Positions 57,679 to 63,046 of a stretch of DNA of 64,000 nt are shown piece by piece. This DNA is from an uncultured Clostridia bacterium. GTDB lineage: Bacteria; Bacillota; Clostridia; Christensenellales; DTU072. A model generated the notes under the pieces. The model saw only the letters and a list, made by a program, of their open reading frames with translations. It had not been told where the DNA came from and ran no database searches. Within the stretch, counting starts at the first letter, position 1; each line of letters begins with the position of its first letter. The stretch lies in the NCBI GenBank assembly GCA_946621465.1, contig CAMOOO010000001.1:384386-448385 (forward strand), in the 5' to 3' direction. The position numbers and the translations under genes were made by a program.

Positions 57679-57769
57679 GGAGAGATGTCCGAGAGGTCGA
57701 AGGAGCACGACTGGAAATCGTGTGTACTGCGAACCAGTACCATGGGTTCGAATCCCATTCTCTCCGCCA
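57679..57769 (+). tRNA. tRNA-Ser (anticodon GGA), type II, encoded CCA
   Basis: Hand fold: acceptor GGAGAGA/TCTCTCC, anticodon stem CACGA/TCGTG with loop CTGGAAA, variable stem GTACTG/CAGTAC, T-arm ATGGG TTCGAAT CCCAT, then G-CCA. Confidence 0.93.
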
Positions 57770-57820: not shown

Positions 57821-58222
57821 CGTTTTTCGGGGATTTGATATATGTTTTCACCATTCAAAAGGTGTTCGTACAGGTGTGTTCGTATCGCTCTATCCCTATC
57901 ACGAAACGGACGTTTTATGTCGCGAAAAATAAATAGACGCATAAATGGTGTAAAATTCAAATATAGCCGACGGCGGATCATCGGGGCGATTCGCAAGCGG
58001 TTTAGCGAGAACGCCCCGATCCGCTCGGCTTTGAGTGTTTCATTTTACCGTGTCGATTTGGTTTTCGGCGGGTGCTTGACCGCGCCGAGAATCGGTGCGC
58101 TTGTATATGTCCAGCACCCGCCATAGTGCCATTTATAAATATTTTGCTAATATGATAAGGATTTGCTTGCTATTATTCGCAATCCAGAATATAATATAAT
58201 TATAAAATTTTGAGGTGATATT

Positions 58223-59290
58223 ATGTTAAGTTTTATGTCCGCAAAAGAAGCCGCTGAAAAATGGGATATCTCTCAAAGGAGAGTAGCAATTCTTTGTTCC
58301 GAAAAGCGTATTGACGGAGCGATGATGGTCGGCAATATGTGGATTATTCCGTCCACCGCCGAAAAGCCTATCGATAAAAGAACCGTGCGCTATGAAAAAA
58401 CAAAAACTATTACACTTAAACCGTTTGTAAAATGGGTAGGCGGCAAAAGTCAACTTGTCGATGAAATAGAAAAAATGTTACCGGCTGATGGTAAAAAGGT
58501 TTTAACAAAATATGCTGAACCCATGGTAGGCGGCGGCGCATTATTTTTCAATATCCTTTCAAAGTATGATTTTGAAGAACTTTATATAAGCGATATAAAC
58601 GCTGAACTTATAAACGCATATAAAGCCGTAAAAGACGATGTGAATAACTTGATTACTAAACTAAATGAAATGCAAATGACTTTTTTGCCTATGGATGAAA
58701 ACGGCAGAAAGTATTTCTATTATAGTGTGCGCGAAAAGTTTAATTCCACCGTTTTATCGGCGGAGACTGCTACCGAAAAAGCCGCACAATTTGTTTTCTT
58801 GAATAAAACTTGTTTCAATGGCTTGTATCGTGTAAATAGAAAAGGTCAATTTAACGTTCCTATGGGTGCATACAAAAACCCGACTATTTGTGATGATGAA
58901 AATTTACGCAACATTCACGAAGCGTTGCAAAACGTAACAATAGTTTGCGGTGATTATTCCCTTTCGAAATCGTTCATAGATAAAGACACTTTCGTATATC
59001 TTGATCCCCCTTATCGTCCTATTTCCGAAACATCTGCATTTACTTCATATAATTCTGAATCTTTTGATGATAACGAGCAGATACGACTTGCACAGTTTAT
59101 TGATGAAATCAACAAGTTGGGAGCAAAGATTGTTTTAAGCAATTCCGATCCGAAAAATGTAAACGAAGAAGATAATTTCTTTGATGATTTGTATAGAAAC
59201 TATAAAATCAATCGTGTCGAAGCAAACCGCGCAATCAATAGTAAAGGTGATAAGCGCGGAAAAATAAATGAATTGCTCATCTGCAACTGA
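58223..59290 (+). CDS. Dam-type N6-adenine DNA methyltransferase (GATC-type, DpnM/M.MboIA-like) with an N-terminal helix-turn-helix domain
   Basis: The N-terminus SAKEAAEKWDISQRRVAILCSEKRIDGAMMVGNMWIIP is a common Firmicutes HTH module. It is followed by KPFVKWVGGKSQL, FNGLYRVN and VYLDPPYRP (Dam family motifs). RBS GAGGTGA. Confidence 0.85.
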   Translation: MLSFMSAKEAAEKWDISQRRVAILCSEKRIDGAMMVGNMWIIPSTAEKPIDKRTVRYEKTKTITLKPFVKWVGGKSQLVDEIEKMLPADGKKVLTKYAEPMVGGGALFFNILSKYDFEELYISDINAELINAYKAVKDDVNNLITKLNEMQMTFLPMDENGRKYFYYSVREKFNSTVLSAETATEKAAQFVFLNKTCFNGLYRVNRKGQFNVPMGAYKNPTICDDENLRNIHEALQNVTIVCGDYSLSKSFIDKDTFVYLDPPYRPISETSAFTSYNSESFDDNEQIRLAQFIDEINKLGAKIVLSNSDPKNVNEEDNFFDDLYRNYKINRVEANRAINSKGDKRGKINELLICN

Positions 59291-59299
59291 GGTGAAACT

Positions 59300-59542
59300 A
59301 TGGAAAAAGACTATATTAATGTTTTAATCGATATTATTAAACTTATACAGGACCCAAATATAGAGAAAAACGTAAAAGAAAAAGCAATAAAGTCACTTTT
59401 AAAACAAAGTGTGGACATTGCCCCCAACTATGGATATCAAACGAAGCAAGACTTAAAGCAAATAATTGATTTGCCTATGAGTGAAAAAGAATTATTCGAC
59501 ACTATTTATTCTTATTTTGCCACACATAATGTTAAACTTTAA
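59300..59542 (+). CDS. 80-aa hypothetical protein inside the R-M operon
   Basis: GAGGTGA RBS sits 5 nt upstream of the ATG. It lies 9 nt after the methylase stop and 11 nt before the endonuclease start. It is Lys/Ile/Asp-rich and probably all-helical. No motif recognised. Confidence 0.6.
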   Translation: MEKDYINVLIDIIKLIQDPNIEKNVKEKAIKSLLKQSVDIAPNYGYQTKQDLKQIIDLPMSEKELFDTIYSYFATHNVKL

Positions 59543-59553
59543 AGGAGAAACAT

Positions 59554-60414
59554 ATGAAAAGAAATTTTAAAGAATGGCTTGGACAGTTTAGAAACAGTAT
59601 AGCAGATTACAAATACTATGTTGATTTCAACAAAGTTTATGGTAATATTGAAAATATCAAAATTGAATTGAATATCTTGAATTCTTTAATAGGCTCGCAA
59701 AAAATAGAAGATGATTTTGATACAATTTATGAAAAGTATCCTGAAATTTTGAAATGCATTCCTATTCTTATTGCAAAGCGAGAATATGAAATATATGCGA
59801 TTGACTCGGAAGGAGAATTTACATATAATTTTGTAAAACCTAATTATTCCGTCGAACAATATAAAGTTTTTATGAGAAAAACAGGTTTGTTTGACTTATT
59901 ATCAAATCACATTATAAAAGATTTGGTTGACTATGTTACAGGCGTTGAAGTAGGTCTTGATAGCAACGGTCGAAAGAATCGTGGCGGTCATTTGATGGAA
60001 AATCTTGTTGAATCTTTCATTGTAAAAGCGGGTTTTGTCAAAGATGAAAACTACTTCAAGGAAATGTATTTGAAAGATATTGAAAAGAGATGGGATATTG
60101 ACTTGTCGGCTCTTTCAAATATGGGTGATGTGGCTAAACGTTTTGACTTTGTTATTAAAACCGAGCAAACGATTTATGCAATTGAAACAAACTTCTACGC
60201 AAGCAACGGTTCCAAACTTAATGAAACGGCAAGAAGTTATAAAATGATAACCGAAGAAGCAAAGAATATAGACAGATTTGCTTTCGTGTGGTTTACTGAC
60301 GGCGTTGGTTGGTATAATGCTAAACATAATCTAAAAGAAACTTTCGATGTGCTTGATAATATCTATAACATTCAAGAGTTAGAAAGCGGTATTTTGGCTA
60401 AAGTGATTAAGTAA
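59554..60414 (+). CDS. Type II restriction endonuclease, DpnII/MboI family (GATC)
   Basis: 286 aa. The N-terminus FKEWLGQFRNSIADYKYYVDFNKVYGNIENIKIELNILNSLIGS closely follows my recollection of the R.DpnII (DpnB) N-terminal pattern. AGGAGA RBS. Confidence 0.8.
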   Translation: MKRNFKEWLGQFRNSIADYKYYVDFNKVYGNIENIKIELNILNSLIGSQKIEDDFDTIYEKYPEILKCIPILIAKREYEIYAIDSEGEFTYNFVKPNYSVEQYKVFMRKTGLFDLLSNHIIKDLVDYVTGVEVGLDSNGRKNRGGHLMENLVESFIVKAGFVKDENYFKEMYLKDIEKRWDIDLSALSNMGDVAKRFDFVIKTEQTIYAIETNFYASNGSKLNETARSYKMITEEAKNIDRFAFVWFTDGVGWYNAKHNLKETFDVLDNIYNIQELESGILAKVIK

Positions 60415-60416
60415 AT

Positions 60417-61157
60417 ATGGCAAAAAAGATTCCTTTACAACCTGAAGATTTTGAACTCGAAACGAATACCGTGTGGGCATTCCCCGATCGCGGCAAATGG
60501 GCTACTCACGATGCTAAGTATCGTGGTAATTGGTCGCCGTATATACCGAGGAACATAATATTGCGTTATTCTGTTGATGGCGATACGGTTTTAGATCAAT
60601 TTGTCGGCGGTGGAACTACAGCAGTAGAAGCAAAACTTACGAATAGAAATTTCATCGGCGTGGATATAAATCCAAATGCCATTGAAATTACTAAAAGTAA
60701 ATTGGTTTTTGAGTGCGAATTTAACCCAACGATTGACATTGAGCAAGGTGACGCTCGCAATCTTTCATCAATAGACGACAACTCGATAGATCTTATTTGC
60801 ACACACCCGCCCTATGCCGATATCATTCATTACAGCGAAGATATTGATGGCGATATGTCACTTTTGCAGATGAAAGATTTTTTATTTGAAATCGGCAAAG
60901 TTGCTGAAGAATGCTATCGAGTGCTGAAAAAGGATAAGTTTTGCGCCATACTTATGGGAGATATGCGAAAAAAAGGTATGGTTCAGCCACTCGCATTTGA
61001 AACAATGCGTATATTCGAAATGGCAGGCTTCAAAACAAAAGAAATAATAATCAAAGAGCAACACAACTGCAAAGCCACGGGATATTGGAAAACAAACAGC
61101 ATAAAGTTTAACTTCCTACTCCTCGCCCATGAGTATTTGTTTGTGTTTAAGAAATAG
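60417..61157 (+). CDS. Second SAM-dependent DNA methyltransferase (N6-A/N4-C type)
   Basis: Motif I is VLDQFVGGGTTAVEA, then IGVDINP, then motif IV CTHPPYADII. It starts 2 nt after the endonuclease stop. Confidence 0.7.
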   Translation: MAKKIPLQPEDFELETNTVWAFPDRGKWATHDAKYRGNWSPYIPRNIILRYSVDGDTVLDQFVGGGTTAVEAKLTNRNFIGVDINPNAIEITKSKLVFECEFNPTIDIEQGDARNLSSIDDNSIDLICTHPPYADIIHYSEDIDGDMSLLQMKDFLFEIGKVAEECYRVLKKDKFCAILMGDMRKKGMVQPLAFETMRIFEMAGFKTKEIIIKEQHNCKATGYWKTNSIKFNFLLLAHEYLFVFKK

Positions 61158-61176
61158 ATTAAAGATAACACTTATT

Positions 61177-62976
61177 ATGATAAAGATCACAAGTATGCAA
61201 ATTAACCGATTTAGATCAATTTTATCCCTTGATATTCAAATCGCACAGGATAATAACTTAATCGCTGTTTGCGGGAAAAACAATGTAGGAAAAACCAATA
61301 CACTTAAAGCAATTAAGTTGTTTTTCTATCCTGAAGAATTTAACACAAATGATATTCCTACTATTAAACATGCAACAGGCGGTCAATCTGTTTATCCAAA
61401 AATCACCATTACATTTTTAGATTCAATAACAAGTACTTATTATACAATTACAAGGATTTTCAAGAATTATGATCAGAGCGAATTAATTGGAATTTCCTAT
61501 ACGCTTTCAAAAAGGAAAAAAATAAACAAAATACAATTGTCAACTGATGATATTAATTCGTTTCTAAGTAAGATCTATTTCATTTTTATAGATTCCGTAA
61601 ATGTTTTCTTGCCCGACTTGATAGATAAGATATCGGATGATATGATAAACGTACAGTATGATAAAGCAAGGTTTTCGGAATCAAAGAAAAATTTAAAAGA
61701 TTCCTATGATAACTATGTAGATGGTTTACAAAAAATATTAGATAATTTTGCAAATGATATATCTGCTACATTTTCAGAGTTTAATAGTGATTGGAAAATT
61801 AAGTTTAAAGTTCCTAAAAATTCTGATACAGTAAAAGATCTTATTTCAAATGATGTTTCGATTCTTTTAGACGATAATGGCAGTTTTAAAGTGCAATCAA
61901 AAGGAGCTGGACTGCAAAGATTAACAGCAATTTTATTGTACTTTGAAATGATTAAAAGGCTCAGTAATCGTAAACAAATTATTCTTTGTGTTGATGAACC
62001 AGATGTTTTCTTGCACGAAGGGTTACAAAGAAAATTAAAAAAACTATTTGATGACAGAAGCGACAAAATGCAGATTTTTTATACTACGCATTCAAAAGTT
62101 TTTATCAACCAATACAACATGAATAATGTACTACTGCTTGATGCCAAAATTTATGAACAACATTCCGCGCGAAAAAACAAAAAGATATCCGTTACTGAGA
62201 CATTTAAAGTAGATTTATCAGATGAAGAAGGTTATAAAAAAATATGCAAACATTTAGGAATAGAGCAAACATCATATGACCTTTTAGATACGAAAAACTT
62301 ATTAGTCGAGGGTGGTTGCGACAAAAAATATATTGATGAATTATGCAAGTATTATGGGTTTATCTCCCCAAACATAATTGCAATGAACGGCGCAGATAAT
62401 GCCTTAAAGTATTTAGATTTCTATAATTCATTTTATCAGGAATCAACCTGTAAATATAAACCTCAAATAAAAGTTGTTTTGGACAATGACAGTAAAGGTC
62501 GAGAGATTGCCGCAAAAGTATCATCAAAGTATTATGACTATATAATTGCAAAAGTCCATGTAATACAAAACTTTGAAGGAACTGCCGATACATCATTGAC
62601 AAATAACAACACAAACAACGAGATTGAAGACTTAATATACCCTGAAATCATTTGTCATTTGATAAATATGATTCTTAAAATGAAGAAAATGACCACAATT
62701 CGTGTGCCCAAAATTTGTTCATCTATAAAAAAGAAATCGTTTAGTTCTAAAGGGATTTTGGAGTTATGCGAACATGAGAAAAATGAAGCAAATCCAAACG
62801 ATGGGCAAAAAATATCTTTTGTATCATCAGGAAGCTCAACCAACAGACTTAAGGATGCTATGGCGGGACTATTCACTATTGAAGCAAATCAAAGCATATT
62901 AGCTTTAATAAAGTCTTGCGAAATGCAATATCCTAATGTAAAAAAAGAAATAGAAAACATAATATCGTTTATTTAA
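61177..62976 (+). CDS. OLD-family / fused PARIS-like nuclease: N-terminal ABC-type ATPase plus C-terminal Toprim
   Basis: Walker A CGKNNVGKTN, ABC signature-like SKGAGLQRL, Walker B ILCVDEPDVFLH, H-loop YTTHS. The Toprim glutamate is in LLVEGGCDKKYI and the DxD is in VVLDNDSKG. Start 61177 (MIKITSMQINRFRSI) is preferred over the tracked 61129. Confidence 0.75.
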   Translation: MIKITSMQINRFRSILSLDIQIAQDNNLIAVCGKNNVGKTNTLKAIKLFFYPEEFNTNDIPTIKHATGGQSVYPKITITFLDSITSTYYTITRIFKNYDQSELIGISYTLSKRKKINKIQLSTDDINSFLSKIYFIFIDSVNVFLPDLIDKISDDMINVQYDKARFSESKKNLKDSYDNYVDGLQKILDNFANDISATFSEFNSDWKIKFKVPKNSDTVKDLISNDVSILLDDNGSFKVQSKGAGLQRLTAILLYFEMIKRLSNRKQIILCVDEPDVFLHEGLQRKLKKLFDDRSDKMQIFYTTHSKVFINQYNMNNVLLLDAKIYEQHSARKNKKISVTETFKVDLSDEEGYKKICKHLGIEQTSYDLLDTKNLLVEGGCDKKYIDELCKYYGFISPNIIAMNGADNALKYLDFYNSFYQESTCKYKPQIKVVLDNDSKGREIAAKVSSKYYDYIIAKVHVIQNFEGTADTSLTNNNTNNEIEDLIYPEIICHLINMILKMKKMTTIRVPKICSSIKKKSFSSKGILELCEHEKNEANPNDGQKISFVSSGSSTNRLKDAMAGLFTIEANQSILALIKSCEMQYPNVKKEIENIISFI

Positions 62977-63010
62977 TATTCGATTTACGTTACTATCGCT
63001 CCGCCACAAA

Positions 63011-63046
63011 CAGCCAAAACCAAAAACGGTTTTGTCTGTTTTATTT
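63011..63046. terminator. Terminator hairpin, shared by the OLD-like gene and the convergent DUF218 gene
   Basis: CAGCCAAAACC (63011..63021) pairs with GGTTTTGTCTG (63028..63038), with one C-T mismatch, then TTTTATTT. Confidence 0.75.

Follow-up and report, generated by a model that had tools for sequence, protein, structure and literature searches.

A predicted OLD-family nuclease gene at the end of a DpnII-type restriction-modification operon in an uncultured Clostridia bacterium

Within a 64,000-nucleotide (nt) stretch of DNA from an uncultured Clostridia bacterium (contig CAMOOO010000001.1, positions 384,386 to 448,385; hereafter the window), the last gene of a small Type II restriction-modification (R-M) operon encodes a protein that, judged by its sequence and modelled structure, is a member of the OLD family, that is, an ATP-binding cassette (ABC) ATPase joined to a Toprim nuclease, here with a divergent nuclease half. 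We consider it probable that this protein (OLD below) is a self-sufficient effector carried as exchangeable, second-line defence cargo of a mobile GATC restriction cassette, with a defence role, trigger and substrate that we infer. An earlier note, made from the letters of this DNA alone, had described the gene as stand-alone and suggested either a class 1 OLD or a single-chain PARIS protein. The gene does not stand alone, because the stop codon of a methylase gene of the DpnII R-M operon lies 19 nt upstream of its start on the same strand, and OLD is the 3' gene of that operon; methylase or endonuclease genes like those of the window stand directly upstream of OLD in 20 of 23 species-level loci. 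The link is one-sided: OLD is tied to cassettes, and most cassettes are without OLD.

The OLD protein and its family

61177..62976, + strand: OLD-family ATPase-Toprim nuclease, 599 amino acids (aa), predicted from Pfam, PADLOC, homologues, fold and conserved residues
61177..62220, + strand: ABC-ATPase head, residues 1 to about 348 (Pfam AAA_15, AAA_21 and SMC_N; profile matches to 6p74 and GajA; AlphaFold2 secondary structure)
62290..62682, + strand: putative Toprim domain, residues about 372-502 (invariant columns, weak Pfam matches, model core, weak fold matches)
62683..62973, + strand: putative C-terminal helical domain, residues about 503-599 (confident all-helical model; invariant K559 at nt 62851-62853)

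The ATPase and nuclease signatures that the earlier note had read from the letters are all present where it placed them. The ATPase head contains Walker A (GKNNVGKTN, residues 33-41, nt 61273-61299, with K39), the ABC signature (SKGAGLQRL, residues 241-249, nt 61897-61923), Walker B (VDEPDVFLH, residues 272-280, nt 61990-62016, with D273-E274) and TTHS (residues 303-306, with H305), as well as a helical insertion (residues about 140-240) that is partly of low confidence in the AlphaFold2 model. In the Toprim part, LVEGGCDK (residues 376-383, nt 62302-62325), DND (residues 436-438, nt 62482-62490) and a conserved E-x-E-D at nt 62620-62631 supply the residue set E378, D382, G405, D407, D436-x-D438 and E482-x-E484-D485. 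Across 55 diverse relatives reaching down to 23% identity, K39, Q247, D273, E274, H305, E378, D382, D436, D438, G441, E484, D485 and K559 are invariant; these include the Toprim acidic residues (E378, D382, D436 and D438) on whose conservation the note had let its reading depend. The invariance of the Toprim acidic residues and of K559 was repeated in an alignment of the C-terminal half alone, and G405 is invariant in 29 closer relatives. The motif and family matches lie far beyond chance, and the gene is real and intact, with an encoded nuclease that is probably active. The + strand open reading frame (ORF) spans 61129..62976, and both the homologues and the database entry begin at the ATG at 61177 (MIKI..., 599 aa). 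The apparent conservation of an upstream in-frame ATG at 61129 is due solely to its overlap with the end of the methylase gene, which is itself conserved but read in another frame.

The whole protein was matched by Pfam AAA_15 (4.9e-20), AAA_21 (4e-15) and SMC_N, and the best of its PADLOC models was Old (3.1e-27), ahead of AriA (1.1e-23), which covers the ATPase part only, and of GajA (8e-18), whose models extend to residue ~520. More than 120 full-length homologues share 52-77% identity with it, some of them named 'ATP-dependent nuclease' or 'OLD family' at source, and a profile search of 1.8 billion representatives returned 5,506 matches at an E-value of 1e-3 or less and 107 at 1e-30 or less, with full-length matches that include the C-terminus down to about 1e-58. 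The solved structures matched best by the AlphaFold2 model of the whole protein (predicted local distance difference test, pLDDT, 80.5) in Foldseek were GajA (8u7i_A, 7e-16), Thermus scotoductus OLD (6p74, 5e-15) and, lower in the ranking, retron-Eco8 OLD (1.4e-11), followed by Rad50 and SMC heads as generic ABC matches; the template-modelling (TM) scores of the whole-protein matches are low (0.3-0.4), which is expected if domain orientations differ. A sequence profile of the 55 relatives reached 6p74 at 1.5e-21 and GajA at about 1e-19, over the ATPase part only, and AriA weakly at 4e-6. Weak, below-threshold Pfam matches among the same relatives were to DUF2813 (39/55), which we take to be the N-terminus of YbjD-type OLD proteins, to DUF3226 (28/55) and to OLD-like_TOPRIM (26/55). 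Since the plasmid and GenBank phage collections yielded only relatives at 30% identity or less, OLD is not a known plasmid or phage gene. Together, the Pfam, PADLOC and fold matches and the conserved catalytic residues uphold the view of the earlier note that an ABC ATPase and a Toprim are fused here in a protein of the OLD family.

A RecF/SbcC housekeeping ATPase, which the note had named as a danger to that view, was rejected: the RecF model aligns to no more than the first 61 residues and scores 28.6 bits, where 172 is the cut-off. A long coiled coil is absent from the protein (its helical insertion comprises about 100 residues), as is an SbcD/Mre11 gene from the window.

The suggestion of a single-chain PARIS protein fared less well. 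PARIS (AriA plus AriB with its DUF4435 Toprim, including fused forms) likewise joins an OLD-type ABC ATPase to a Toprim nuclease and is associated with restriction systems, but DUF4435 is absent from the families listed for the 55 relatives and matches neither the window protein nor its C-terminal half at E-values up to 10, and no PADLOC model for AriB matches the C-terminal half. The window Toprim instead weakly matches OLD-like_TOPRIM, DUF3226 and Toprim_2. The profile comparison that the note had proposed, PF13304 and PF13175 against DUF4435, gave matches to AAA_21 and AAA_15, a below-threshold OLD-like_TOPRIM and no DUF4435. PARIS identity was therefore rejected, with neither DUF4435 nor AriB matched at any threshold tried. 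A related proposal concerns function: as a PARIS-like guard on a single chain, the ATPase would bind a phage anti-restriction protein directed at the adjacent restriction system, upon which the Toprim would be released, tRNA cut and the infection aborted. The match of the AriA models to the ATPase part is what one would look for here, the split candidate system PDC-M38 (PADLOC) weakly matches both halves of the protein, fused AriA-AriB forms exist (PMC12392090), and the position in a restriction operon parallels that of PARIS-like modules in BREX operons (PMC12839542). Nevertheless, with Old rather than AriA as the best PADLOC model, GajA and Thermus OLD as the best structures, the AriA sequence match weak and the DUF4435-type Toprim undetected, we judge such a guard quite improbable. 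Ocr, the known PARIS trigger, is an inhibitor of Type I and BREX systems and not of enzymes of the DpnII type.

The note had further set apart a stretch of 190 aa, beginning at about 62400, as an unrecognised region after the Toprim that could be a sensor or specificity domain. Position 62400 falls inside the Toprim, as the DND at 62482 and the E-x-E-D at 62620-62631 indicate. Most of the stretch is predicted to be the rest of a catalytic Toprim and an OLD-type helical domain, because its residue pattern mirrors that of Burkholderia OLD, in which two metals are held by E400, E404, D455, D457 and T506/E508 and the helical-domain lysine K562 completes the site (PMC6755086). The same order and similar spacing are found for E378, D382 (+4), D436-x-D438, E484/D485 where the helices begin after strand 4 and K559 in a late helix, such that residues ~372-502 would correspond to the Toprim and residues ~503-599 to the helical domain. 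Modelled alone, residues 364-599 reach a pLDDT of 93 and contain a four-strand beta/alpha Toprim core. What is left of the unrecognised region is the last ~97 aa (residues ~503-599), for which there was no match in Pfam, PDB or BFVD; the last 118 aa likewise have no Pfam match.

The restriction cassette and its variable fourth gene

58223..59290, + strand: M1, a D12-class (Dam-like) N6-adenine DNA methylase (Pfam MethyltransfD12 5.5e-65; PADLOC MTase_II 7e-98)
59300..59542, + strand: 80-aa ORF between M1 and the endonuclease (ORF list; no family match)
59554..60414, + strand: DpnII-family Type II restriction endonuclease (Pfam DpnII 3.7e-106; PADLOC REase_II 1.5e-100)
60417..61157, + strand: M2, an N6_N4-family DNA methylase, the second methylase of DpnII/MboI-type systems (Pfam N6_N4_Mtase 1.3e-26; PADLOC MTase_II 5.6e-115)
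63015..63045, + strand: terminator-like hairpin with a T-run at the operon end (from the sequence)

All five genes of the cassette (M1, the 80-aa ORF, DpnII, M2 and OLD) are co-directional, a terminator-like hairpin is present within the operon only after OLD, a convergent DUF218 gene lies downstream of OLD, and the G+C content drops from ~43% to ~30% across 59-63 kilobases. A D12 methylase, a DpnII endonuclease and a second, N6_N4 methylase in one operon are the marks of a DpnII/MboI-type system. The cassette shares these three core genes with such systems, in the same order as in MboI, where the endonuclease gene stands between the two methylase genes; going by the family, its specificity would be GATC. 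We know of no fourth gene in classical DpnII/MboI-type systems, whereas the cassette of the window has a variable fourth gene after M2, here OLD.

The recurrence of this pairing was counted in a species-dereplicated genome collection, in which 23 loci carry an OLD relative at 45% identity or more. Among the 20 loci with cassette genes directly upstream of OLD, the full methylase-endonuclease-methylase order is present wherever the sequence reaches far enough. In each of the three closest relatives (72-77% identity), OLD directly follows DpnII and the N6_N4 methylase, with the D12 methylase further upstream where the contig reaches, and the flanks of the three are mutually unrelated. Selenomonas sputigena has a D12 methylase, DpnII, a 178-aa ORF, an N6_N4 methylase and OLD; Phascolarctobacterium has the same series with a Mrr-like gene beside DpnII; and Veillonella keeps the same gene frame with another Type II endonuclease family (DUF6996/6997/7226; PADLOC REase_II 1.7e-96). 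The three remaining loci of the 23 differ. At locus L015 (612-5520) an AlwI-family endonuclease, which we take to be a GGATC cutter, and a PIN-domain protein replace the DpnII frame upstream of OLD. A convergent D12 methylase is found downstream of OLD in L025, and L028 is truncated beside an insertion-sequence-like gene. In L026, L029 and L038 OLD is frameshifted, broken into 2-3 frames behind intact-looking methylase genes, and the cargo therefore decays in some genomes.

More distant OLD-like relatives (25-27% identity over residues 1 to ~480) were seen in Streptococcus mitis (L039) and S. oralis (L040), where they are convergent to a D12 methylase; the gene in L040 is also convergent to the REase_II family (DUF6996) seen in Veillonella. 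These two loci may represent a second, independent link of OLD-like genes with Dam-type restriction systems.

Seen from the side of the cassette, the pairing is optional. We surveyed the 80 closest metagenome relatives of the window M2 (69-94% identity), 58 of which have at least 700 nt of downstream sequence. Only 4 of these 58 closely related cassettes carry OLD, and in most others another co-directional gene begins 10-30 nt after the methylase stop. Ten such slot genes were scanned, and for seven of them an assignment was possible: a 663-aa GHKL ATPase, a GmrSD Type IV endonuclease, two AIPR abortive-infection proteins, a DUF3800 protein, a Ser/Thr kinase and an extra methylase; several other slot ORFs have no assignment. 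The loci with genes other than OLD at this place are as follows.

L057, L060, L061, L065-L067, L070, L071, L086: non-OLD genes directly 3' of the N6_N4 methylase

Because sister cassettes hold other genes there, the position behind M2 is an exchangeable cargo slot of which OLD is one occupant. Compared with sister cassettes, DNA identity is ~80-90% in the methylase genes and ~65-80% in the endonuclease and OLD genes. This profile contains no sharp recombination blocks, and for that reason we do not claim recent module swapping in the window copy.

OLD is also found away from any cassette. A full-length solitary homologue of 49% identity lies on an IMG/VR contig (L137, 6001-7809) from a phage or phage-plasmid, flanked to one side by ParA/ParB, DnaB and SSB genes and to the other by those for integrase, resolvase and terminase. 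Relatives at 39-41% identity stand alone in methylase-free surroundings, directly behind two short ORFs that, read by eye, we presume to encode ribosomal proteins L13 and S9. The existence of copies without any cassette argues that OLD can work by itself.

These counts bear on the possibility that OLD is instead a working part of the restriction system and needs the cassette, for example by processively degrading GATC-cut fragments from their ends, or with host DNA protected from OLD by the GATC adenine methylation of the cassette. Solitary copies with no methylase nearby speak against such a dependence, as do the 54 of 58 sister cassettes with unrelated cargo in place of OLD and the lack of any methylation-reading domain detectable by Pfam in the OLD protein, and we think it unlikely. 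It would, however, account for an OLD subfamily that sits almost exclusively behind cassettes with Dam-like/N6_N4 methylases (20-21 of 23 loci), in which the endonuclease varies (DpnII, the other REase_II in Veillonella, AlwI) and the methylases stay; the spacing indicates co-transcription of OLD with the cassette, and, in vitro, P2 Old and Thermus OLD attack linear DNA as 5'-3' exonucleases (PMC10568477). We hold it similarly doubtful that a 'restriction-coupled OLD' forms a fifth context class, the activity of which would be wired to the neighbouring GATC system through the products or the failure of restriction (cut ends that persist, for instance, or DNA left unmethylated), or through methylation as a mark of self and non-self.

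That the gene has no defence role, and encodes either a RecF/SbcC-like repair ATPase or an addiction module stabilising the cassette, seems to us very improbable. The ATPase head does resemble Rad50, SMC and RecF generically, but the RecF match ends after 61 residues and both the long coiled coil and an Mre11/SbcD partner are missing. Restriction cassettes behave as selfish, addictive elements; the OLD gene, however, is patchy, horizontally spread and frameshifted in three loci, and its assignable slot-mates are mostly defence genes.

Borders, spread and smaller features of the cassette

58016..58134, + strand: left border element L, ~120 nt, conserved, non-coding, with a long imperfect hairpin (nhmmer at the left edge of related cassettes; alignment)
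62973..63006, + strand: right border element R (ATTCGATTTACGTTACTAWCGCTCCGCCA), ~30 nt (begins at the stop codon that ends the last gene of the cassette; conserved behind different cargo)
57679..57769, + strand: tRNA-Ser (GGA) (ARAGORN; Rfam tRNA 1.2e-10)
58167..58195, + strand: promoter-like site TTGCTA-17-TATAAT (consensus scan, 10/12 matches; candidate only)

The cassette and its cargo are enclosed by two border elements. The consensus fold of element L has 21 pairs, 7 of them with compensatory changes, and sequence variability in public runs begins exactly at its end, at 58134. Elements L and R recur at equivalent places around sister cassettes with any cargo (L051-L090, L138 and L139), one locus contains two consecutive L..R units, and a contig in public run X2 joins L straight to R in what looks like an empty slot. 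The cassette of the window begins ~250 nt downstream of the tRNA-Ser (GGA) gene, and related units are likewise found downstream of tRNA genes, which differ in identity, at a distance of a few hundred nt. No recombinase was found inside the L..R units, no Rfam match for the border elements, no retron RNA in an Rfam scan of the window and no tRNA-derived direct repeats (att sites) around the island. Possibly, defence genes of gut Clostridia are exchanged through the slot bounded by L and R, which would then be a cassette-exchange platform not described before.

That the cassette has spread horizontally follows from the contrast between its methylases, with up to 94% identity in human-gut contigs, and the host glycerate kinase, which has no relative above 65% identity and whose few named matches are Clostridiales or Clostridia. 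Cassette-like sequences also occur in animal-gut metagenomes.

Smaller features of the operon include the promoter-like site, which we treat as a mere candidate because sites of this kind are no more frequent in the region than expected from shuffled sequence. M1 has an N-terminal extension of ~60 aa (58223-58400) with a weak helix-turn-helix match (HTH_17, residues 4-44), which is kept in 355-aa versions of the methylase and missing from the 286-aa Veillonella version, and which may have a role in autoregulation. The 80-aa ORF has homologues at the matching position in L063 and L080 and could be a small regulator of the restriction system. GATC is not depleted, with 190 sites in the 64-kilobase window against ~234 expected from base composition and 10 against ~14 in the cassette; these counts fit a host with methylated GATC sites.

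Place among OLD systems and proposed mode of action

Of the known OLD types, class 1 comes closest to the protein of the window. Its members (P2 Old, Thermus scotoductus OLD with structure 6P74, Vibrio cholerae OLD and E. coli YbjD) have the same single-chain ATPase, Toprim and C-terminal helical part, and like OLD of the window they have no helicase, reverse transcriptase or split Toprim partner; phage P2 carries old, and the 49% homologue is likewise alone in a phage. Thermus OLD is shorter (528 aa against 599 aa), and the Toprim/helical half of the window protein, taken alone, is too divergent to match 6p74. What defines class 1 is that the gene is isolated and not close to defence genes (PMC10568477, PMC6755086). 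A 2019 survey placed 107 of 837 old genes in 'species-specific operons', some with defence genes (PMC6755086). For the class 1 label of the earlier note, the single-chain architecture thus holds and the isolation does not, as OLD recurrently ends an R-M operon, and the label fails on that account.

The best whole-protein fold match is to GajA, the class 2 protein of Gabija, which is also of similar length (575-598 aa), but Gabija has an adjacent GajB/UvrD-type helicase. The earlier note was right that neither a UvrD-type helicase nor a reverse transcriptase nor a separate DUF4435 gene is to be found among the window neighbours of OLD, and a GajB/UvrD/PcrA-like helicase is likewise absent from homologous loci with neighbouring genes listed. 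For class 3, the retron effectors, the NCBIfam model of the retron Eco8 effector gives 32.5 bits, where the cut-off is 250. Classes 2, 3 and 4 (the last being PARIS) thus do not fit, each for want of its partner gene. OLD-ABC/Toprim modules have been described as back-up effectors inside BREX and BREX-related operons (PMC12839542). These are, like OLD here, optional extra effectors within a methylation-based defence operon; the host system in that case is BREX, whereas here it is a small, classical Type II cassette of the DpnII/MboI type with two methylases. In our literature searches, no account of a link between OLD and DpnII/MboI-type cassettes came up. The OLD protein family and its use as a back-up in methylation-based systems are already known and published, and what is new is the compact, recurrent yet optional pairing with a Type II cassette, together with the divergent nuclease half.

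The reading that we favour, OLD as self-sufficient second-line cargo, would have the protein act by itself, in the manner of single-gene OLD proteins. A nucleic-acid signal that infection is under way or that restriction has failed, for instance aberrant or unprocessed DNA, would be sensed by the ATPase head and its helical insertion. In response, the Toprim/helical active site (putatively a two-metal Toprim with a catalytic lysine) would cleave either DNA, which it would nick or degrade 5'-3', or else tRNA, with abortive infection as the result. Defence would come in two layers, restriction first and OLD after it. The proposal follows precedents in the family: once bound to aberrant DNA structures, P2 Old goes on to cut tRNA and aborts the infection (PMC12445682; bioRxiv 10.64898/2026.07.10.737580), Vibrio OLD nicks DNA (PMC12392090), and the exonuclease activities of P2 Old and Thermus OLD have been mentioned above.

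Several observations weigh against this proposal and the family assignment beneath it. The window protein's own OLD-like_TOPRIM score is below threshold (E 0.038), as are the other Pfam matches of the C-terminal half (DUF3226 8.4e-6, Toprim_2 0.021, Toprim 0.05). The model and fold search suggested in the earlier note gave, for residues 364-599, a confident model but nothing at E <0.001 in PDB or BFVD, with weak topoisomerase/primase Toprim matches next to spurious ones to dehydroquinate synthase. A sequence profile of the C-terminal half had no significant match in PDB and reached no solved OLD Toprim, its best Toprim-type match being the T7 primase Toprim at E 0.13. The proposed equivalence of K559 and E484 to the catalytic lysine and a metal ligand of OLD comes from motif order rather than superposition. 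At the level of the locus, the near-exclusive tie to GATC-type methylase cassettes could mean functional dependence and not hitch-hiking. A clear Shine-Dalgarno sequence is absent from the 19 nt before the OLD start codon (61158-61176), and among four OLD-carrying sister cassettes compared, two (L051 and L053) have a clear AGGAG- or AGAGG-type sequence. The trace of transcription consists of two 151-nt contigs on the OLD gene from one metatranscriptome run, which is too thin for a claim of expression.

OLD nucleases have been classed by their gene neighbourhoods, and the triggers of the single-chain members are only now being worked out. The branch described here is compact and recurrent with a GATC restriction operon in many gut Bacillota, yet optional and swappable, so a small Type II cassette can serve as a carrier with an exchangeable defence slot. 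The pairing makes layered immunity, with restriction first and OLD second, directly testable, and offers a clean way of testing if an OLD protein responds to the outcome of restriction. If OLD did prove to be coupled to restriction, the operon would be a tractable system of four genes in which to study what triggers OLD proteins of the single-chain type.

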